The translations under genes and the position numbers were made by a program. DNA of 64,000 nucleotides from the NCBI GenBank assembly GCA_000165345.1, contig CM000430.1:768001-832000 (forward strand), given 5' to 3'. The notes beneath the pieces were generated by a model that searched no databases, was not told the origin of the DNA, and saw nothing but the letters and a program-made list of their open reading frames with translations. Below, one piece after another: positions 1,013 through 64,000 of this stretch (its first letter is position 1; each line of letters opens with the position of its first letter).

Positions 1013-20752
<19,740 letters not shown>

Positions 20753-21693
20753 TTTTTCCTCTGATATATTAAAAAATACACTCTTCCATCATAAAAATCC
20801 AATAAATCATTCAATTTTCAAAACTAGATAGATTATCACGCTTTGCACCTTTATTTATATTAGAAAAACTTTCATTCAAGGTTTTGGAAGAAAGACTTCC
20901 TTAACAAATCTCTTTATTCTACTTATTCATAAAATACTGAATGACTTTCTAATTACAGCTCTATTCAATTCTTTAATTATCCAACTCTTTTACAATTTTT
21001 TTTTTCTGTTTGAATCCATAACTTTATTTTCTTTGTCTGCAGCAGAGCCAAACATGTGGCCAAAAGGCGCCAACTCTGCATCACTTATACTATGCATAAT
21101 ATAATTGGGATATAATTTTCAAAAAGAAAAAAAAGTAAATTTTGATAAAATTGATTACTGGAAGAATATTAAAAACAATTTAAAGTTTAAATAACCCATT
21201 TTTCTGGGCTTTAATTTACAATTGACTTTTTTAAAAACTCTTCCTCTATTTGATTTCTTTATTATAATTTTAAAATAACTTTTCAAACAATACCTTAAAT
21301 TAATTAGAATGATTTTTTTTGATTCTTAAGAGAATTTAGAATTTATAAACCATTATAGAAATATGTTTTAAAAATTGAGAGAAATTTTTTATAATATTCA
21401 ATTACTAGTAATTTTTTCTTTTTCTCCAATTTTATTCCCTATGCATGCAATTTTCGTTACAATACCGGTGTTACACAAAATTTTGGCGCCAAGTCGATTT
21501 TTTTTTTCTTGAGTTTAATCAGAGGAATAAAACCTATATGAAAAGTAAATATTTGTATATAATTAAAAGTGAGATTTATGAATTAAAGTGAAGGAGTAGA
21601 TTCTAAGTTAGGTGTTAAAAAACACAATTTGATGAACTAGTGACTATTATTATTATTAATATTATTGTTGTAATTAGTCAGTAATAGTTTCTG
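20753..21693. promoter_or_regulatory. Divergent intergenic/promoter region between the VPS13-like gene (minus) and the exportin-like gene (plus)
   Basis: Extremely AT-rich. Contains the E2F-like palindrome-type motifs AAAGGCGCCAAC (21063-21074) and TTTGGCGCCAA (21482-21492), plus ATGCATGCAA (21443-21452). These are the two motif classes known to be over-represented upstream of Cryptosporidium genes. Confidence 0.6.
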
Positions 21694-24600
21694 ATGGAAG
21701 AGGATCATCTGATAGAAAAGGTGAGTAAAAAATCCAAATTTCAGGTAATAATTGAACAGAAATATGAATTTAATTAACTGACTTTAGATTATCTCAAGTA
21801 TTAAAATAACTTTGGATCCAAATAGAAGCTCAGTGAATAATTCTTTAAATTATGAAGGCGATATATGTGGGGTCAGTGAGAGATCTCAATCAGAATATTT
21901 CTTAGATAAAATATGCGATCAAGAGAATCTGAGAATAGATGAACTTGTATTTGAGGTACTAAAATCTGCAAAATTGAAAAGGAAAAGTGGACTTATTGGG
22001 GATGATTTACAACATGGAGTGGAATTTATTAGTTTATCAATTTTGGATAAGTTTGTAATTAGAAGATGGGTACAACTGAGAGATGAAGATAGATCCCGAG
22101 TAAGAAATAAGCTTTTAGAGATTTCAGTTTATGGAATAGACAATATAGATGATGATATGATTCTTGTGAGTTCTTCATTTGCTTTAAGAAAACTTTGTTG
22201 CACCTTTAGCAGGGTAATAATTCAGGATTACTTTACATCTTGGAAAGTATTTATGGAGTCTATTTTAGACTATAGAAGCAGAATAATTAGCCTTGATAAA
22301 CCTGGAGTAGTAATATTAAGTAGTGGTATCTTTTTAAGAAATAGGAATATTTCAAATTTAACAAGATTGGTTTTAGGTATAACAAAAGAGATTTCGGAGA
22401 CTTTATTAATTAATAACTCAAATATAAATGAATTAAACTCAAAGATGAGAGCTTCTTGTACAAATGGACTTTGTGGTGAAATTGAGCCAATATTACGTAT
22501 AATTAGTACTGAACTTCAGAATGCATGTAATTTGAAAGGAAATAGAGAAATGATGAATTTTGATATTTCTCTAGTAAAGCAGAGTTTGGATTGTTTGAAG
22601 AACTTAACAAACATAATAGATTCTGGAAAGTTGTTGAATTTGAGATTGGATGATTTATTAATAATGTTACATAATACTGGAATATTAGAAAATGATGAAG
22701 AAATCTTAGATCTTTTAGATTCTCTTGTACAGAATTTGACAAAAAATAAAAAAGGACTAGTTTTTATTTTAGATTACCAAGATTTGAATAGATTTGTACT
22801 TGGAGTTTCAAACTTAGTCAAAAAAACAGTTTTATCGCCAAAGTTATTTTTAGAAGACCCAGATTATGATACAAGCTTGACTCATTTGAATTGGATAAAA
22901 TTATTTAAAGATCTTATTGAAGGTTGTATTCCAGCAGTACTAAGAATTCCAGACAATATAATTTTAGAGACCTCAAATAATAAGATGAATACAATTACTT
23001 TGATTTGGAAGATTGCTTTAATACTTTGCATGCATCCATATATTTCAGTTTGTGATCTAGCAATTTCCACTCTTTGCCAAATTTCAAGGATTCTTGCAAA
23101 AGATTTCCCAAAAAATTTGTCAAAAGATGGTTCTAAATACATTCAATTGGTGAAAGATTTTCAAATTGATGTTTTGTTAGTAGTTATATTTGTAAGATCA
23201 GTTCGTATTGGAGACCCAAAAATTAACTATTTGACAGATGAATGGAATCAATGGAATTCTTTAATCTTGAATATGATCTTCAATTCTATAGAAAAACTCG
23301 ATTCTGAATCTTTTAATATTCTCTTCCATTTTAAAAATCAGTCATACAACTTTTTTTTAATAACTTCCAAGTATTTTAAACTTCTAGATCAGTACAATAT
23401 TTCTGATTCTTCTCATATTAAAGTTTTTTGTGATTTTGAAACATCAGAAAATACGCAAATCTCAAAAAATAATAATATGATAGGATCATCCTTCAACAAC
23501 TCATATAGCTCTTTAAGAAATAGAATAATTCAACTGGTAAATTCTCTTGTGGATTTTGGACAAGGAATACTTCTGGACCAACTTTTGGAAACCTGTCTTA
23601 ATATTGCAATGTTTATTTTCAGCTCACAACCTTTTAATATAAGATGTAAGAAACATTTGACTTTACAAAATTCTTACAATAATTCTCCTCAAACAGTGTG
23701 TCAAAAGTTGGTTATAGTCGATGGAATATTTATTATACTTGAAACAATTCTCTGTAGAATCAACTCTAAAATTCTTGATAATATTGAAAGTGATAAATTT
23801 TTAGATTCCGATACCCAGTGTGGGGCTGGCGCCTCGTCATTTTTTGATTTGTTAAACCAAAATACAGAATATAAAGAACAAAAAATATGGATTTCATCAC
23901 TGTTTAAATTAATGAATGGTATTTTACAGCTTTCTTTGCTTGATTTATGTGGGAGCTTCTTGGAATCTAGACGACTTATTTTTATTTCTCAAACTGTAAT
24001 GTGTATAGAGTGGTATCAGGAATTATACAAGAATTCAAGTTCTTCCATGATTAAAAGCGATGAGATTTTGAAAATTTATCTGTCTTACTTATTAGATTCT
24101 GGAGGAATAAGAATTCATGAATTAAGAAAAACAGCATCAAATTGTTTATCAAGAATCCTTTTAAGCCATCCAAAATTATTTGAGAAAAATCTTTTACTGA
24201 TTATTCAATTAATTAATGAAAATCTGAATAATTCTTGTACTTGTTTTGAAGAGAAGACTGTCTTGAATTCTGTATTAATAGCTGCTACAAATGCATTAGG
24301 GGACTTTAGCAAGATTTCAGAAAGTTGCGAAATGACTTCAAAAGCAGCTTTTAGTATGATTTCAAGAGATTCATTTCATTTCTCAAATCAAGAGGAATTA
24401 TTAGAATTCTTATTTAAAGATCTTATTGAATCTGTGAAGATGTCTAAGGAACCAATTGAATCAAATTGGAAGAATTTGATACTATTAAAGAATTCTTTAA
24501 CTTTATTATCCTCTATATTTGGAAATGTTAAATTACCAGAAGATTTTTTAACTCTGAAAAATGGAGGATTTCTTAAAGAGGAAAATTCTCATTTTATTTT

Positions 24601-26560
24601 AAGACATCCTTTGGAAAATGTTTCAAGACAAATCTTTGAAACAATATGCTTAATTAATTTGACCTTTTTACAGATTTGTGATAGCCATTTACATACTAAT
24701 ATAACCAATAATAAATCCCAATTGGAAGAATTGAATATAATTTCTCTTTTCAACGCCATCTCAGATCAAGAATGGATGCATAGGAGTGGTATTAAGAATC
24801 AATCTGATAACAAGATTATTAAACTGTCTCAGATTACTAGTTATAAGATGATTTTTTATAATAGCCTTTTTCAAATCAGAAGAATTACTTTTTCAATTAG
24901 AAATCTTTTAATAAGATTACTAGTATTCACATTTACACTTGGTACTTATAAAGATATCTTTAATGATCAAAGTAATAAGATGATTTTAAATCCAGGACAG
25001 TATTTTGATGAAGTTAATGTTAATCTGCTTATAAAGACATTGATAGATCCAATCAGATCTTTACCAATTAATATTCTAAATTTTATTATTAAAAATGGTT
25101 TGGCTATTATTCTTTCTCCTCAATCGCTTCCAAGATTTCAAGATGGTCATCCCACGGATATATTTTTAGAAGAGGTATTTTCCAATAGATTTGTCCCTAT
25201 AGTACTTGATAGACTTAAGTCTGAGTGGCAAAATTTAATGATTTCACAAGCATTCATATTATCTTCATCCATTTCAGAATTAAAAAATTTAAACTTGGAA
25301 AATATATCTTCATCAATAATACCTTTTCAAGATCCATTTAAAGTATTATTAAATTTAAATTTTGATAATAATGAATTCCAAAATAATATAATCCAAGATA
25401 ACTCTCTTTATAATGTTATCTACAATTCTCATTATAATGATTTATCAGAAACTTGTTTAACCATTTTAAAGATTATAAATGGATTCATTCTAAGTACAAA
25501 CCGTCAATGGCAAACAAACTTTAAATCAAAAACTGGGTCCAAGTTAATTAATTATCCAAATAAAATTAAATCATTATCTAATAATAATGAAGATTTTCAA
25601 ATGGATAGTAGTTTTAGTGGATACCAATATAATCAAAATCAATATTATGAAGATCATGAATTTCAAGATTCAATTTTAATGGATTGTGAAGATTCAGGAA
25701 ATCATTCTTCACAAAAAAACAAAGTGCAACCAAAGCATGTTGTATTGTCCCAAGTTTTTCTTTTAAATCAAAATCTGATGAGATCTTGCTTGGAAATATT
25801 GATCGAATTTTTAAGCTTTCCAGATCCAAATATTTTAGAGACTTCATTACATATAATTCAAAGGTACCTTCAACTATATATTAACTTTACAAATCAAGGA
25901 ATCCATTCAAAATACTCTCATATACATGTTTTTTTAATTAAAAATCTTCTAATTCAACTTTTTAAAGTAGGGCCCAGAGCATTACCATTTGATCCACTTA
26001 ACCTTTCTCCAAGCAAGAATGATAATATAAAAATAGTAACTCCTTTAAACTCTTATATCAAGTTAAACCATCCAAATTTACTTAAAAATACTATTATTGA
26101 TTGCATTCAGAGCATTATTAGATCAGACCAAGACTGCCTAAATTTCATAAATAATACAAAAAATGAGCTCAGTAAAGACTTGAGTAATAATATTTTAACC
26201 TGCAGAAATTTATCTTCGTCCAATTCTATGACTTATAATAACTTTTTTCCAGAACAACAGATATCAATTCCAGATAAAATCTTGGAAAATGCTTATAAAA
26301 ACTTGGAATTTCTATTCTCAAATTCTAATGAGTATTTACCTTCTGGATCAGAAAGGATATTTTCTCAACAAGATTTAATCCTTATATGTAAGACTTTTCT
26401 TCAAGAACATATTATGGATATAGTCTTCTCTACTCAAACTCCTATATTTAGTGCTTTAATTGGAAATATCCTCCAAAAACTCAGTCAAATATCGTCTCAG
26501 AATGAGCAAAATCCATATATCAACTTTACCACGTTTATCAAGCCAACTTTCCTTCAGTAA
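21694..26560 (+). CDS. Exportin-like importin-beta-family karyopherin. Two exons: 21694..21720 and 21788..26560, with a 67-nt intron at 21721..21787
   Basis: The ORF-track start at 21812 is a TTG, not an ATG. The reading frame stays open back to 21788, which sits directly after the sequence TTTAG. A short ATG exon, ATGGAAGAGGATCATCTGATAGAAAAG, lies 67 nt upstream and is followed by GTGAGT. Exon 1 is 27 nt in phase 0, and the total CDS is 4800 nt, or 1600 codons. The spliced N-terminus reads MEEDHLIEK|IISSIKITLDPNRSS... The segment EFISLSILDKFVIRRWVQLRDEDRSRVRNKLLEI resembles the importin-N/exportin N-terminal motif, as in the exportin-5 sequence HFGLQILEHVVKFRWNGMSRLEKVYLKNSVMELI. The protein is long, 1599 aa, and looks HEAT-like and helical. 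Confidence 0.6.
21721..21787 (+). other. Intron 1 of the exportin-like gene (GTGAGT...ACTTTAG, 67 nt)
   Basis: Canonical donor and acceptor. Phase 0/0 is compatible with the upstream 9-codon ATG exon. The in-frame TAG at 21785-21787 is the acceptor AG itself. Confidence 0.65.
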
Positions 26561-42710: not shown

Positions 42711-43046
42711 TGCTCCAACTTGAATTGATAAATTAACATATTAATCACTATTTACACCACTATTTCATTGGCATTCATAATCTAACAAAATATATTGGAA
42801 TTTTTTTTAAGTATATGATTATTATTTATTTATTTATTAAATCCACTATTTTTTCATTAGTGTGGTGCTAAACTACATACAATTTGGCGCCAAACTGATT
42901 ATCATTAATAATTCTGGTAATATTTAAAATTGCATGCAATTTTTGCATGCGATAAATGGAGAAAAAAAAAGCAGGAAAGGGAGAAATTAGAGAAATGTAA
43001 AATTAGAGATAACTTAATAGAAAGATAATAATTGTGAAAAATAATA
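42711..43046. promoter_or_regulatory. Promoter of the 694-aa gene
   Basis: Contains TTTGGCGCCAAA at 42883-42894 and TTGCATGCAATTTTTGCATGCG at 42927-42948. Confidence 0.55.
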
Positions 43047-45245
43047 TTAGCCCCAGAGAATTAGGGATGGTTTTCCGTCTTTGTTAATTCCAGCTGTGAA
43101 TATCCAAGGTTGCCTTGGATGCCAAATAGCTGAGCTAATAAAAGAAAGCTCTCCTTTAATTACCTTTAGAGGGACAAAAACGGGATCACTCATTAGATCT
43201 GTGGGCATTCTGCAATGGAAAACATTAATAGTGCCATTTTTACTAGCAGAGAAAACCATAGATTTTCCTTGGTGGAATTGTACTTTTTTGATAGCTGATT
43301 CACTATATCTTAAAAGTTTATAAGGAGTATTTCCAAGATCCAGATCAAACCAGGCAATTCTTCCATTGGATTGTCCGACAAAGATATGTTTCCCTGAAGA
43401 ATCTAAAGAAATGGTTGTTGGATCTTCAATACCAATAAGTTTTTTGACCAAAGCTTTACCAGTATTTTGGTTACCAAGCTTCTTATTACCTGTTTTACTA
43501 GATGTTAGGTCAACAATCCTAATACATGTTTGAGTAGCAACAATAAGCCATGGGTTAGATGAGTGAAACTGAACAGATTTAACCAATCCACTAAGTTTTT
43601 TAAATGCAGTAATTGATGAGCATCTATTGATAGAATGAATAACAACTCTTTGTGAAGGTGAAATAGCTCTTGGAGATACTGCAGCTAAATACCCTCCTTT
43701 ACTATGCCAGGATAAATGTCTAATAGTAGATTGATGTTTAATTACAACAGCTGAGCTTAATTCTTTATTTAATTCAGAATTAGAATCCAAATTAATGCTA
43801 TTCCATGAAAGTAACTCCAATTTACTGGATTCTTTATTATAAGTATGGAGATCCTCAAATAATTCCAAAGAATGTTGATAATCTTTTATTGGGTCCTTTT
43901 CCTTGTTTTTAGAATTTTTAATTATTTCATCTGAATCCGAAGTTTCTTCCTGTTCAATATCAGTGGAAGCTTCAGAGTCTTCTGCAAAGCAAATGCTTGG
44001 AAGTTTCAGTACTAAAATAAAGAGATATTCCTCAACTCCACAAGCTAAAATAGGCAAATTAGGATGAAACGCTAGAGTTGTTATAGAGTTTGTGTTAGAT
44101 TCTTGTGTTTCATCACTAGAAGATGGTTCATCGTAGATATTTACTTGTTGAGCTAACTTTGATATATCCAATTTAAAAGCTATTCGTGAAGTAGATATTT
44201 CAAATACTGTCAATAGATTACCTACTCCCACAGCTAGCCAGAATCCATCAGATGATGCAGACATTTGTATATTTTTACTGTCAATAATTTGATCAAAGTC
44301 ATATCTAATTCTGATTGAAGTTGGATAAGGTTTCAAATCGCTTGTATCAATTGGGGGAGGCAAGATACTTTCAGGATCAACGTTCATTCTCATTTTCATA
44401 GCTCTAGGACACAAATAAAGATCCAAGCAACGCTCAAACCTTTCAGTAATGAGCTTGTCATAAGCTGGTACCCTTCTTAGACAATCAAATTTAGATGGTA
44501 TAAATGTATTTTCCAGTTCACCCTCTTTCTCAAGCTTAGAAATCTCATCCTCATCAAACAAGTACTCTTCTGGAGGATTATAGCTATGTTCATGAATTGG
44601 GAGTTCCATTCTTGGTGCTGGGATATGAGGAGGCCCTTTAGAAGTAGTTTCATCAACAACCGGATCCAAAATTGCATCTTCCCAAATATCAAATACTTCC
44701 GGTTCCTTCTTCTTAATAGGATGTAAAATCTTAAGCCTTATTAACTTAATTAGATGAGTAATTTTCTTTGCTTCCCATTTAGATGGTATAAATCCGCGCT
44801 TAGGTACTGGTCTGTTTGATACTGGGAATATTTTATCTTCTAGACTGTCATTTTCATAATGGTAGCTTTCCGCATCAAAGTCAGGATTAGCATAAGTTTG
44901 AGATGAAATTCTTCGGATTATGTCCAAATCCTCATCAGTAAGTCTAACTGAAGTCTGATTTTTTTGATCGTATATTGTTCTCCATGCATCTGGATCTGTT
45001 GAATTTAGTAGAGCTTGTAACTCAGAATCTAAAGAGAAAAATGTATTAAATATATTTCAATAAGTACTAAATATAGATCATTGAGTTAACTTACCTGACT
45101 TATTGAGTAGTTTTTTCAGCCTCTCACCGTCGATTGTATATCCTTGGTGATCAAATTCGTCATACCAATGTAAAGGTACATTTCCAACGCGATTTACCTC
45201 CTCATCCTCATCTGAAATGTACAAATTTTCATCGATATACTCCAT
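43047..45245 (-). CDS. BOP1: BOP1/Erb1 ribosome-biogenesis WD-repeat protein, 710 aa. Two exons: 45245..45095 and 45028..43047, with a 66-nt intron at 45029..45094
   Basis: BOP1NT hallmarks are present: ...HSYNPPEEYLFDEDE... and ...RCLDLYLCPRAMKMRMNVDPESILPPPIDTSDLKPYP... C-terminal WD40 blades include IHPRQPWIFTAG. The ORF-track start at 44927 is TTG. The frame stays open to 45028, which is preceded by the acceptor CTCTTTAG. The upstream exon starts at ATG 45245..45243 and encodes MEYIDENLYISDEDEEVNRVGNVPLHWYDEFDHQGYTIDGERLKKLLNKS. This matches the conserved BOP1 N-terminal motif (NTVGNIPLEWYDEY.HIGYD.DGKKI). It ends in phase 1 at the donor CAG|GTAAGT. Total CDS is 2133 nt, or 711 codons. 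Confidence 0.8.
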
Positions 45246-45953
45246 TGTACTTTTGATACTTTATTTACAGAGTATTTTTTTAATTCTATTTTCCCTACCT
45301 TTATCCACCTTTTTCTATGGTCTTTTTTTACCATTTATATGTTTATTGAAGTGGCGCTCAGTCACTTTAAAAGGCGCCAAATCTTTTCTGCCTCTATAAT
45401 TCTCTTTTTCTTCTATTAGTAGGGTGCTGCTCCAGGTATTCAGTAATGATTAATTTTAAACTGTCTCGTGATTAGAATGAGTGCTTACTCATGTATTTTA
45501 CCACTCATGTAAGATATTTGCTTAGGTTTTTACCTTGTTGATGTTCTTCTTGGTTATCTCATTTTCTAATTTGTGTCTTTACATTCTCAGCATGCACGTT
45601 TTAATATATTAATATTTTGACACGTAAGTTTTAGTAATGAGTTGCATGCATTCATGCGCAAACTTTTTGTAAAACTACCGGTATTAGGAATTATATTATC
45701 ATTTTGAAACATCAAGACAGTAGAAAATTGCAAATAAGCTTACAAAATTAGAGCAAATCAATTAAATGATTTTTAACTCAATTCCTCTTTATTATCAACA
45801 ATGATGAGTGAAATATTACATTCTTCTCATTCTTTTAATGACTTTATAATGAGATAATATATTATTTTTGCCTTGCCGCCCCAAAGTTACGAAATATAAC
45901 ATGTATTGAAAATAAGAAAAAATAAATGTGACAAGGGTTTTGATATTAAAGCA
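45246..45953. promoter_or_regulatory. Divergent promoter between BOP1 (minus) and the 3964-aa gene (plus)
   Basis: Contains GTGGCGCTCAG at 45352-45362 and AAAAGGCGCCAAATC at 45369-45383. Also CAGCATGCACG at 45589-45599, GTTGCATGCATTCATGCGC at 45641-45659 and CTTGCCGCCCC at 45872-45882. Confidence 0.55.
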
Positions 45954-48900
45954 ATGAGAAATTGCGTTGAGGAAAATGGAGCAAATGGTGTGCAGAGCTT
46001 GATCAAGACATTTGTGAAAGAGGACCCTTCATTTGTGATTTTACAGTCCATTAAAAGTAGTAATTATTTGGAACTTACAGATGGAAGGCTTTTGGTATCG
46101 CATAACCCCAAATTAATAGCGAATTTGACAACTAAAGGTCAACTTAGTGTATTTCTAGATACTTCTAGAGGTGAAATTGAAAATATTGATACTAGACAGA
46201 AGGATATTGTTTTAAAGGAAATTAAATTGCCATTTTTAAAAGAGAAAACTGAGTCAAAAACTGTGATATCAGAAGCTATTTGGTGCAAGTCTATTATAAG
46301 AGAGGATCATCTCAGAGAGTATGAAGTTGCTCCAACTTTGGTTATTCTTGAAAAAACAACAGAGTATATCGAAAAAGACGTCAAATGCAAATACTGTAGT
46401 AAGTATTCAGGAAATCAGTTTTTGACAATAATACAGTTTTCTAGAATTGGAAACTTTGAGGATGGGGAATGTGAAATAATTGAATTGAATGCAAAGAATA
46501 ATTTGGAAAATGTAATCAACTTTAATAGGCCAATATCTATTGATTTTGAAGTTACAAATACTCATAAACCACCTATTTCAAATCAAATGAGAACAATAAT
46601 CAGGTACAGTCGAATTCCAATTATAGATATATTCAATACTTTTTCTAATAAGAAAGCCCAATTTTCCGAAAGCCATAAAACTTGTAAAAGCTGTTTCTCA
46701 TTTAATAATGCTCAAACTTTTGTTGATAACTCCATGGAATCAGGTTTTGTGATAATTATGGCTAATTTGATAGTATTATCTTTGGATTTTATTCAAGGTA
46801 ATTCTTTAATTCTAAAAAGAAGGTTTCTTATTCAAGATTTTCGAGATCCCCAGATTCGCTTTTCTGGTTTTACAATACAAAGTGGATGGCTTGTTTCAGT
46901 ATCTATTGATACTTTGGAGCTATTAATTTGGAACTATTATCAGGGAATAGCCTTTAGAATGGTTAAACTGAGTGAAGATTACTTTGATTTCACAGTTTCA
47001 AATGAGTCAAGAGTTGATGTTTTTGTTACTCTTTCATTTGGAAAAGATTTATCCAAGTTATTTTTAGTCTTTGATGGCTTAAATGAAAATGCTTCCAGTC
47101 ATATAAAACAAGTTGGGATGTATATAATTGATTTAAATGCTATTTTTAGTCAAATTTTCTGCTCTAATTGTATTTTAAAATACTTGATAGACACAAGAAA
47201 AACTTCTGAAATGAGAATATCTGATCCAGGAACTGAATTGAAGAAAAAGTTGCAAATAAGCTCAGGAAGTATACCTCACGTACAATTATATGAAGAGTAT
47301 TCATCGCTCACAGTTTATCCTGAAGCTTTCCATTTTGGAAAAGAACATAAAGCTTTGGAAAAAATCATGAAATGTCTTTCGGAAGAATCTTGTCAATATT
47401 TAGACTCTTTAGATTGGGCAAAAAGCTTGAATCTAAAGTTGGATTTAACAAAATATGAATTTGGATGGCCTCTTTTGTTTAACAAAAGTTGGTTTTATGG
47501 AGATCTATTTTGCAATTATAAGATGAATCAGATCATTATTACTACAATTGAAAATATCATTGCAAGAAACAGCATCGGAGAAGATTTCATAGATAATTTT
47601 GAAGAGCTAAGTAATAATATATATTTAAAGACAATTTCTAGCCATTTAAAAAAGGTTTTAGAAGGGATCCCTGAAATTTTATTTTCGAAAACAATAAGTC
47701 CTAAACAAAGTAATAAGAATTGCTCAGAAATACTTGGAAATCAAGAAACTGATAATCATTTTCAACGTAAATTGATATCTCACAAAACTAGCTTTATATA
47801 CAGTCATTTAATTCCAATTACCATTGATGAATTTCCAAATCATGAAGAATTTCAATACGAGATTAGTTTTATCGATATTATTCCATCATCTGATACAGTT
47901 TTAATACAATTTTCTATTCGAGATTTACCTAAGAAGCATCTAAGCTTTTACATTTCTGAAGAAAGCAAAAATCTTTTTATTAATCAGTTAAGCTTTGAAT
48001 GTGAATATACTACGTTGATTATGGGTTTAACTAAAGTTATAGATTGGCATTACTTTGCACTGAAAGATGTTAGAAGGGAGAAATCTTACCTTGGTCTTTT
48101 TTCAAAAACTATAAGCTTACTTGGGCTCATTTATTCCACTGTAAGGTACCAGGATATTGACAATTTGCAAAAAATTTGTGAGTATAACAATGTAGATCCA
48201 TGCATTATTCCATTAATACAATTGGAAATAGGATTCAAACATGAAGAATTAAAGCTTATTAGCCTTTCTTTGGAAAATACTCCAATGATACTTAATCTAG
48301 AAATGGTTAAACTAGCAAGAAATATGTTGCAAGATGCTAATTTGCATTTATCTTTGGATTTTACAAGAGAATCATCCAAGCTTTTCCTTGATTTTTGCCT
48401 GGACAAAATCAAATATTATTCCGAGAATGAGTCAACAGAGATTTCTGAAGAAAAAAACCAACAAAAGTGTAAGGTTGATGAGTTTCTACAAGAAATTTCT
48501 TACTATTTGTCAGAATTTAGAATGTATTTAAATAAGACTTCAGAATTGACAACCTATGTAAAAGTTTGTGACAACATACAAAAAGGTGATCAAAATTCAG
48601 AGGATGAATTGATTAACGAAACAAACAAAGTAGCTGATGAAGATGGAAGTAATCATGATAATGAGATTTTGAGTAAAAATGAGATATTTATAAGAGACCA
48701 GATAATAATGGGACATTATTCAAGTTTAATTGATTGGTATTTAAAAAGTAGCAAAGATAAAAACCCTCAAGTATTTAGATTAAAAGTTTTACATGATATT
48801 TATAGACTGATTTGTACTTTAAGTACGAATTCTTTAACATTATCAATCCATATGTTGAGACAAATTGGTGAGAATACAACACAGTATCTTAAAAGCATTC

Positions 48901-51900
48901 TGTATTATACAAGTAGAAGAGAAATTAGAAGAAGACTAATTAACCATTTAAAGCACTTTGGTGCCTTAAATGATGATGATATTGCTCTTATTCAATTCAG
49001 TAATGAATTGGAGAGTTACTATCCAAATAATTGTTATTCTGTGGAAAGAAATAGGATCTGGACATCATTATTTACTTATTCTATTCCATATAATGTTTTA
49101 TCAGATTGTAACTTGGAAAATGAGTTCAAGGTTAATACTGATAATGAACTAATCATTCAAGAAAGTATAGAAGGTGGAGTATCCATCAATGATTGTTTTG
49201 TTTCTAATGAAAATTTAGACGAATACTATTTCTATGGAGGTATTGATCAAGGAAGCCATGTAAACAATCCTATTTTTTCGGCAATGACTTATCCATTTGG
49301 TGGATTGCAAGCTTTAAAGTCCGGATTCAAAATAAACCAGGAGTATAATTTACAATATCTTGAGGATTGTAGGAGAATTAAAAGTGTTACCAGTATCTCA
49401 GCCAAGAAATTATCAAATAATAAGGATGATGGTTATAGAACAGAAAACAAAGAAAATGTTGAAATTAGTAACAGAGACTTCTTTTATTCAAACTTTTCTA
49501 CTGAAGCTATTGCTACTTGGGAAGGTTTAAAGTGTTTTGAAATAGAAGACTACGATTTAGAATTAAATAATGACCTTTATATACAAGAAGGAATTTCAAA
49601 AGGGCAAGAGGTTGAAAATGATAGAATTTCTGGCAAAAATATGAATACAGTAATTTCTAGTATTCCTGAGCAAGAAGGAAATGATTTTATTCGTCTTAAC
49701 AATGGTAGACTGGTTTCTATTAAGAATTCAAGCTGTAAACAGTGTTTAGATTTGAACGAAGATGAAGAGCTTGAAATTGAGGAGGAGTTACTCAATTATG
49801 AAAATGAATTTGGGCAATTATTATTATCCAAAAATGATTCAAAAGAAAGTTTTTCTATATCTTCTCAAAAGGAGCATATATCTTCAAATTCATCAATTAT
49901 ATTATCCCCAAGCCCAATATCAAGCTCATTAGAGAAGATTCAGCTAAATACTACCAATTTTGGAGATCATAATTCTAAGAGAGGTGATCTAACATGGCTC
50001 AGACTTCAAAGACAAAGAAGAGAAATGATTAACAACAATTTCAACAATTTTGGTTATTTAAATCATTCACTAAAATTTTTGAGTGAATGGTCGTTTGATG
50101 TTTCTATTAGAGTAGTCATTGAAAAAACTCACCTTCAGGTTTGCTTTGTTTGGAACCGACTATTAAGAGGATTCCAAACCCCTCCAAAGAGAAATGAAGC
50201 TTTAGTATATTCTCTTTTGAATTTAATCATCAGGAAGACTACAATACAACTTTCAAATAACTTGGATTATGAAATTAATTTGCAAGTTGCAAAGACAATT
50301 ACTTCTAGTATTTACATTGCAGTATTTGGATTTATTTTTTCTCATTTTGAATGGAAAAATATTCCAGCTTCAATGAACTATTTGGATAATACACTTTTTC
50401 TAATGTTCAAATATTTTAATGTGGAAGAATCCTACAAGTATGAATTATTGAATGAAATAATTCGTCTCAATTTTAAGTATAGTCCGAAATTTATTGTTGA
50501 AGTGTTTTTGAATTCTTTAGATTCATCTGGAATTGTTCCAATACATCACTTAAAGGCTGATTTGTTGCAAGAGAAGATCAATCAAATTGAGATTGACAGA
50601 TATAATAATGTTAAATATATTCTTGATAAATGCATCAGATATGGTAACTATGGAATTTATCTTTTTAGATACTACTTAATGAAATCCAATGAATTCACTT
50701 CTAAAGAATCATTACATACTTTTTTATCAGTAATTGAGAATTCTAGAGAAACCAATATTAAAGAAGAAAATCAACAAAATCAAGTGGATTATACTGATTA
50801 TTTAAATACTATATATGTTTATCTAGATAGAAAGCAAGATATAATTTTGCTTTCTCTAAAACAGACTTTCAATTCCCTTAAATCAAGTATTGATGAGAAT
50901 ATTTATTTATCTCTCCTAAATGGCTGTACTGAAAATGAGTTTGAAGTTAAGAAGGAAGAAATAGATCAATTTGACCTTAAAAAGTTGGATAGTCCAGGAT
51001 TCATATTAAATGTCTTAATAAGGTACTTTAATAACTACTATGAAAGCGTGCCTGGACCTGATGAGAGAGAAGAGGAGAAAAGGGAGGAAAAGAAAGAGGG
51101 AGAGGAGAAAGAGGAGGAAGAAAATGAGGAAAAGGAGGAGAAAGAGGAAAAGGAGGAGAAAGAGGAAAAGGAGGAGAAAGAGGAAAAGGAGGAGAAAGAG
51201 GAAAAGGAGGAAAATGAAGAAAATGAAACGAAAGAAGAAAATAAGGATAAAGATATCGAACAATCAGAGTTTAAAGGAAAAGATAAAAGGATCAAAATAA
51301 CCCCATATTATATTCTTTCAATTTTATTTTCATTGGATATACCCAGAAAAGAGATATATAATCAAGAATTCTACCAATTTCTTAGAAAATTCTTTCCCTC
51401 TTTAGTAAAAGTATTCAGGGAAGCATTTTTAAAAGAAAAAGTATGCATTGATCAGATTCAAGGAGATTGTTTTAATAAAATGAATGCAAATGATAATAAA
51501 GAATTGAATTCAGATTCTTCAACATCATTTAATATTACTCAGATAATAAAAATGACAGATAAAAACTCAGACTCTTTGATAAAATTGATGGAATTGTATC
51601 CAGAGTTAAGAGAGAAACTTAAAGAAAACCCTAATAATACGGATGAATTTTTTGAAATATTTTCTGAAAACCTAAAAAAAGTAATAGAAGAAGAAGAAAA
51701 AGAAGAAGAAACAGAAAAATCATTCGAAATTTCTGAAGATAAATTAAGCTTACCTATATTACATTATATATCAATAGGAAGACCATTTTTTGCATTTAAT
51801 CTTTTATGTATGAGACATGCAAAATTTCATAATAGTTTAGAGTATAAACAATTTAAAAAGGAGGATTTAAAGTTCCCAGAATTGTCAATGGAAGAAAAGA

Positions 51901-63547: not shown

Positions 63548-64000
63548 ATCTGGTTACCTTGTGGCTAAAATCCTACCCCACTTTCTTATTTGATAACAAT
63601 AGATTTGTTCAAAGGGTATCTATTTATATTCACTCTGGTAAATTCTTCTTTAATTTCTCAATTTGTTAAAAAACTTGCTCAATTTTCAAATTGGCTTTCT
63701 CTCTTTCTTTTGATCTCTCTTCATAAAAAAAAAAGTGAAAAAAAAGAAATATCAGAAACCTAATTTCACAACAAAGCAATATCCCTACTTAAATATTTGA
63801 GCTATGCTTATACCTGGCTAAATATACATATATAAATACACAAATGCTTCATTTGTATAAATATATGCCAATGTTTTCACTTCACTTCTTGTTATATTGT
63901 TTGTATTTATTTTTCTGGTATATATTTCCTTTACTTATTATCTTTATTGGCGCCAATAATAATTATATTAATTTGAATCACAAGATTTATCTTCATGAAA
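63548..64000. promoter_or_regulatory. Promoter region of the SNF2 gene
   Basis: AT-rich, with TTGGCGCCAA at 63947-63956. Confidence 0.45.

Follow-up and report, generated by a model that had tools for sequence, protein, structure and literature searches.

The gene cgd2_3680, located on the minus strand at 43047-45245 of the window, that is, the whole 64,000-nt stretch of Cryptosporidium parvum DNA analyzed here, is almost certainly an orthologue of Erb1/BOP1, which is composed of two exons separated by one 66-nt phase-1 intron and encodes a 710-aa protein carrying a complete BOP1NT domain and a WD40 propeller. This two-exon model is correct yet already known, and the main value of the analysis lies in quality control, as the correct model proved recoverable from the sequence alone; no new biology is involved.

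Exon 1 occupies positions 45245..45095 (minus strand, 151 nt), encoding residues 1-50 and the first base of codon 51 and ending in ...TCAG, and is followed by a spliceosomal intron at 45094..45029 (66 nt, phase 1) and by exon 2 at 45028..43047 (1982 nt, residues 51-710). Reading of the minus strand over 42800-45600 places the ATG start codon at 45245-45243 and the TAA stop codon at 43049-43047, and the spliced coding sequence of 2133 nt comprises 711 codons, 710 for amino acids and one for the stop. The product of exon 1 is MEYIDENLYISDEDEEVNRVGNVPLHWYDEFDHQGYTIDGERLKKLLNKS, within which the conserved motif NRVGNVPLHWYDEFDHQGYTIDGERL is found. The long open reading frame, as listed, covers 43047..44927 and comprises 626 aa with a TTG start at 44927; its first in-frame ATG is its Met107, equivalent to Met191 in the spliced numbering. 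The initial annotation had described such a frame, beginning at a TTG, with its first methionine more than 100 residues in and remaining open up to an acceptor at 45029/45030, together with an upstream ATG exon of 151 nt at 45245..45095 that ends at CAG/GTAAGT in the correct phase and yields 711 codons. Every one of these coordinates and numbers was reproduced, including the end of the intron at 45029 and the beginning of exon 2 at 45028.

The border between exon 1 and the intron reads ...AAGTCAG/GTAAGT at 45095/45094, and the intron is delimited by a GTAAGT donor (GTAAGTTAACTC...), a T-rich tract, and a TTTAG acceptor (...CTCTTTAG; ...TTTTTCTCTTTAG). It is AT-rich, with a G+C content of 19.7% vs 34.6% in exon 2. 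The two exons share one reading frame, the intron length of 66 nt being divisible by 3; two in-frame stops nevertheless lie inside the intron (...GKLTQ-stop-SIFSTY-stop...), and the exons therefore cannot be joined by read-through. Enumeration of all GT..AG pairs revealed 36 that restore an open reading frame from the ATG at 45245, so that an open frame is by itself insufficient evidence for a given intron. Among these 36 pairs, 45094..45029 is alone in having both a GTAAGT donor and a T-rich TTTAG acceptor, and it is also the shortest, keeping the most sequence and all conserved residues, in agreement with both the orthologues and an intron-less contig described below. Its removal restores a single open reading frame, and the homology to human BOP1 runs through the junction at residues 50/51.

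The intron was further compared among seven species, namely C. parvum, C. ubiquitum, C. canis, C. felis, C. ryanae, C. xiaoi, and C. andersoni, by determining, for each orthologue, which one GT..AG interval has to be removed to yield the deposited protein. Exon 1 measures 151 nt and the intron lies in phase 1 in all seven species, with intron lengths of 66, 67, 64, 75, 55, 55, and 63 nt, four of which are not multiples of 3. The donors are GTAAGT in five cases, GTAGGT in one, and GTATGT in one, and every acceptor is a YAG preceded by a T-rich run. Retention of the intron would lead to a stop within 4-9 codons in 7/7 species. The mean pairwise identity amounts to 48.6% for the intron, which is near the 44.8% of the 150 nt of non-coding sequence upstream, whereas exon 1 reaches 75.7% and the initial 152 nt of exon 2 reach 75.1%. 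Variable sites among the seven species are distributed over codon positions 1/2/3 as 18/11/46 in exon 1 and as 17/12/44 in exon 2, and the third-position bias in exon 1 is that expected of purifying selection on coding sequence. The orthologous gene models may have been propagated between species, but neither the conservation statistics nor the stops in the retained introns depend on the annotation. The same flanking genes are found in all species, including a divergent giant open reading frame of about 3,550-3,950 aa, a downstream gene of 580-703 aa, and a subtilisin-like gene, the stretch fetched for C. felis ending before the last of these.

A 629-nt transcript-like contig in the ENA (ERZ21852397, NODE_17208) skips exactly 45094..45029 and reads ...aataagtcag/attctgagtt... 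across the junction; it is also the source of a 165-aa protein in the same protein cluster. Its positions 1-200 align to 45295..45095 of the window and its positions 199-629 to 45030..44599, with an overlap of 2 nt that arises because AG is common to the end of exon 1 and the end of the intron. The contig is C. hominis-like, the two segments showing 100% and 99.3% identity to C. hominis and 98.5% and 98.8% to C. parvum, and it contains a 1-nt deletion downstream; the introns of C. hominis and C. parvum differ by one base. If assembled from RNA, this contig would be transcript evidence for removal of the intron; as it stands, it is suggestive rather than final. An exact 39-mer spanning the spliced junction gave no match in JGI metagenome contigs.

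The 5' end of the contig lies about 49-50 nt upstream of the ATG, and the corresponding segment (45246..45295, minus strand) represents the minimum 5' UTR. An in-frame TAA is present there six codons upstream of the ATG, which supports this ATG as the start and speaks against a further upstream coding exon. An additional 5' coding exon supplying the N-terminal region that is missing relative to Erb1 and BOP1 was accordingly discarded, given this stop in a transcript-like contig, and it is also disfavored by the methionine start that is kept in seven species.

When the spliced 710-aa protein was aligned with BOP1/Erb1 and with the Pfam BOP1NT family, a full-length domain was obtained and the exon-1 peptide proved to be homologous, as the initial annotation had supposed. 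The BOP1NT (NUC169) domain (PF08145) covers residues 28-286 (44322..45164, minus strand) and is split by the intron; the spliced protein matches positions 1-259 of the 259-position profile with 281.5 bits and an E value of 1.2e-83, the curated cut-off being 29.6 bits. The long open reading frame alone matches profile positions 57-259 with 216.9 bits, so that splicing gains 64.6 bits, and the complete domain is obtained with the spliced model only. Exon 1 alone gives a weak BOP1NT match (E 0.063, 13.7 bits, profile 1-21); this very short exon is unconvincing in isolation because of its length, and the weight rests on the gain seen with the spliced protein and on the alignments to solved structures. 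Since the Pfam model begins at residue 28 (YDEF...), the peptide NRVGNVPLHW belongs to a motif located just upstream of it, yet human BOP1 and yeast Erb1 share it. The proposal that exon 1 encodes the conserved start of BOP1NT thus stands insofar as the exon is conserved in BOP1/Erb1 and extends the match to profile position 1, and needs amendment insofar as NRVGNVPLHW falls outside the Pfam model.

All 13 matches in the PDB are to BOP1 or Erb1, with residues 9-700 of the query aligned to Erb1 residues 144-800. The best of these, human BOP1 (8fkp), has an E value of 2.9e-106 and is ungapped across residues 50/51, pairing SDEDEEVNRVGNVPLHWYDEFDHQGYTIDGERLKKLLNKSDSELQ with a stretch of 45 letters of the human protein, and yeast Erb1 is matched with an E value of 1.3e-94, the alignment containing two gaps of one residue each close to the exon junction. 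Outside Cryptosporidium, the database matches that carry a name from their source are designated BOP1, Erb1, or NUC169-domain protein, the others being unnamed or hypothetical. The WD40 beta-propeller region, delimited from the Pfam and PDB alignments, extends over about residues 300-700 (43080..44282, minus strand). Within it, WD40-type Pfam matches span residues 480-700 (47 bits vs a cut-off of 27), and residues 480-699 match the crystallized Erb1 propeller chains 5em2, 5cxb, and 5cyk with E values of about 1e-36. An acidic, serine-rich, lineage-specific insertion is located at about residues 345-470.

Yeast Erb1 and human BOP1 (6elz, 8fkp) likewise combine BOP1NT with a C-terminal WD40 propeller and share the N-terminal motif VGNVPLxWYDxFxHxGYDxDG with the Cryptosporidium protein, at an overall identity of about 30-35%. 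Two differences are apparent. The acidic and serine-rich insertion in the propeller region is extra in the Cryptosporidium protein, and the latter starts about 125-140 residues later than its counterparts, with query residues 9-11 corresponding to Erb1 residue 144 and BOP1 residue 127, and therefore does not possess the charged N-terminal region of Erb1/BOP1. In Erb1, this region contains a nuclear localization signal (NLS), as reported by Kater et al. 2017 (PMC5745149).

Comparison with public records shows that the C. parvum protein deposited as 'Erb1p-like protein' or 'Cgd2_3680 protein' (QOY42861.1, WKS76666.1, WRK31160.1, KAL5370163.1; UniProt F0X4P6), for which the name 'Ribosome biogenesis protein BOP1-like protein' is used as well, matches the spliced protein at all 710 residues (100% identity). 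The 'Cgd2_3680 protein' entries may derive from full-length cDNA sequencing, in which case they would constitute direct evidence of the transcript in C. parvum. In GCA_031892065.1 (CP029781.1, chromosome 2), with which the window is identical over all 22,199 nt compared, the public gene has a span of 2199 nt and a product of 710 aa, from which it follows that the same 66-nt intron is already annotated; the deposited cgd2_3680 model agrees in sequence, span, and intron. Equivalent proteins of 710/711 aa are present in the current annotations of C. hominis, C. meleagridis, and the chipmunk genotype. The models of 2004 differ from these. The 669-aa model of C. parvum Iowa II (XP_001388238.1, labeled 'partial') represents the same locus and is identical from DSELQ... 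to the C-terminus, but it lacks exon 1, and its first residues, NIFNTFFSL, stem from translation of the 3' end of the intron. The 520-aa model of C. hominis TU502 (XP_667146.1), also from this locus and also without exon 1, is identical from Met191 onward. The statement that the spliced reading corrects the gene model consequently holds against a naive open reading frame call or the 2004 models, whereas current annotations already contain the exact 710-aa protein. Users of the accessions XP_001388238.1 and XP_667146.1 obtain an N-terminally truncated Erb1/BOP1 from which part of the conserved tail is missing.

This is in keeping with the annotation history of C. parvum, in which the use of RNA-seq and full-length cDNA increased the proportion of intron-containing genes from 4.3% to 10.8%, and the 451 introns added average 99 nt in length and 22% in G+C content (PMC4637869). 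In the supplement of that 2015 paper, cgd2_3680 appears solely in the dN/dS table. In another paper, the gene is listed solely among the loci at which the 2004 CpIOWA II assembly carries a frameshift variant relative to CpBGF reads (PMC12179316), and if that indel affected exon 1 or its vicinity, it might be a reason for the 'partial' model of that year.

Two other readings of the locus were weighed against the spliced model. The gene could be devoid of an intron and translated from Met191 inside the long open reading frame, giving a 520-aa protein of the form deposited as XP_667146.1 for C. hominis TU502 in 2004, a view to which the general scarcity of introns lends some credit, about 89% of Cryptosporidium genes having none (PMC4637869). 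However, some 165 BOP1NT positions out of 259 would be missing from such a protein, the 570 nt that precede the Met191 codon show coding-sequence conservation among the seven species, most changes falling on third positions, and the reading is at odds with all later annotations and with the intron-less contig; it can be regarded as virtually certain to be wrong. Alternatively, the intron may be removed as proposed in part of the transcripts and often retained in the others, possibly in a regulated manner, in which case many transcripts would encode a 55-aa peptide (MEYI...GKLTQ, followed by a stop) and splicing efficiency would tune the amount of Erb1. The in-frame intron stops in 7/7 species are compatible with this, as retained transcripts would lose the full-length product, but stops of this kind are expected of any AT-rich intron, the GTAAGT donor and the T-rich acceptor both conform strongly to the consensus, and the poor conservation of the intron (about 49%) speaks against an internal regulatory element, which makes frequent retention highly improbable. 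The two-exon gene with an intron at 45094..45029 remains the preferred reading.

Within the Nop7-Erb1-Ytm1 (PeBoW) module, which organizes nucleolar pre-60S ribosomal particles, Erb1/BOP1 acts as the hub; the genes for its partners, the orthologues of Nop7/Pes1 and Ytm1/WDR12, lie outside the window. In yeast pre-60S structures, in which Erb1 residues 125-807 are visible, the N-terminal tail of Erb1 leaves the propeller and 'meanders' by way of Nop7 and Rlp7, then Nop16, Has1, and eL36, to the inter-subunit side, with Spb1, Noc3, Ebp2, and Brx1 as its contacts there (PMC5745149). The Erb1 segment aligned with residues 9-50 of the Cryptosporidium protein, at about residues 144-185, forms the distal end of the visible tail, and by analogy exon 1 most likely encodes part of these distal contacts. 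Judging from the yeast structures, a protein produced without exon 1 would be expected to miss part of the tail contact network. A more far-reaching interpretation, in which the intron would serve as a retention switch tuning Erb1 dosage and 60S output over the life cycle, or in which the shortened N-terminus devoid of the NLS region would reflect a rewired nucleolar targeting, is a long shot and very unlikely to apply.

A candidate promoter element, TGGCGCC, is located at 45373..45379 on the minus strand, 128-134 nt upstream of the Erb1 ATG. This heptamer occurs 11 times in the window vs 0.14 expected by chance, and TGCATGCA occurs 15 times vs 0.44 expected; examples of the sites of these motifs are 45373-45379, 42885-42892, 21484-21491, and 63948-63955. 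Several of the sites are intergenic, and some lie inside annotated genes (23827-23833, 33629-33636, 23027-23034, 38299-38306), at least two of the latter being TGGCGCC (23827-23833 and 33629-33636). We take TGGCGCC and TGCATGCA to resemble the E2F-like and AP2-type upstream motifs of Cryptosporidium, and the copy at Erb1 is presumably of the E2F-like type, as a candidate.

Public models for the window comprise 13 genes, at least four of which, including cgd2_3680, contain introns. The initial annotation had regarded 5'-proximal introns as a recurring feature of this region, and the public models at 21694-26560 and 57896-58350 agree with this; the genes concerned are few, and their proportion is not clearly different from the genome-wide rate. 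The former gene (plus strand, 4867-nt span, 1599 aa) has a 27-nt first exon and a 67-nt intron (GTGAGT...CTTTAG), an arrangement that is the sole single-intron solution, and a plain open reading frame call (21812.., TTG start) misses this intron. The latter (minus strand, 455-nt span, 94 aa) has 170 nt of intronic sequence according to its annotation and no Pfam match on record; reading of the sequence by eye indicates an apparent 43-nt first exon ending at CAG/GTAAGT and an apparent second intron of the form GTAAGT...TCTTAG.

The subtilisin-like Peptidase_S8 gene at 37949-40093 (minus strand) encodes 509 aa within a span of 2145 nt, which leaves about 615 nt for introns. Its orthologous models vary in length, with 790 aa in C. 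ubiquitum vs 509-531 aa in the others, and, judged by these lengths, some multi-exon Peptidase_S8 models may still be wrong. At 1013-20752 (minus strand), an uninterrupted ATG open reading frame of 6579 aa corresponds to a public product of 6547 aa with the same start; the difference of 96 nt could be an annotated in-frame intron, and 45 GT..AG intervals of 96 nt fit. The divergent giant neighbor of cgd2_3680, located at 45954-57800 (plus strand), encodes 3942 aa in GCA_048859185.1 (CM109962.1) vs 3948 aa in CP029781.1, and the loci in CM109962.1 and CP029781.1 are out of register, with 2736 mismatches when compared position by position. The C. parvum assemblies thus seem to differ by an indel, possibly in the low-complexity run of the EEKEEK type in this open reading frame.
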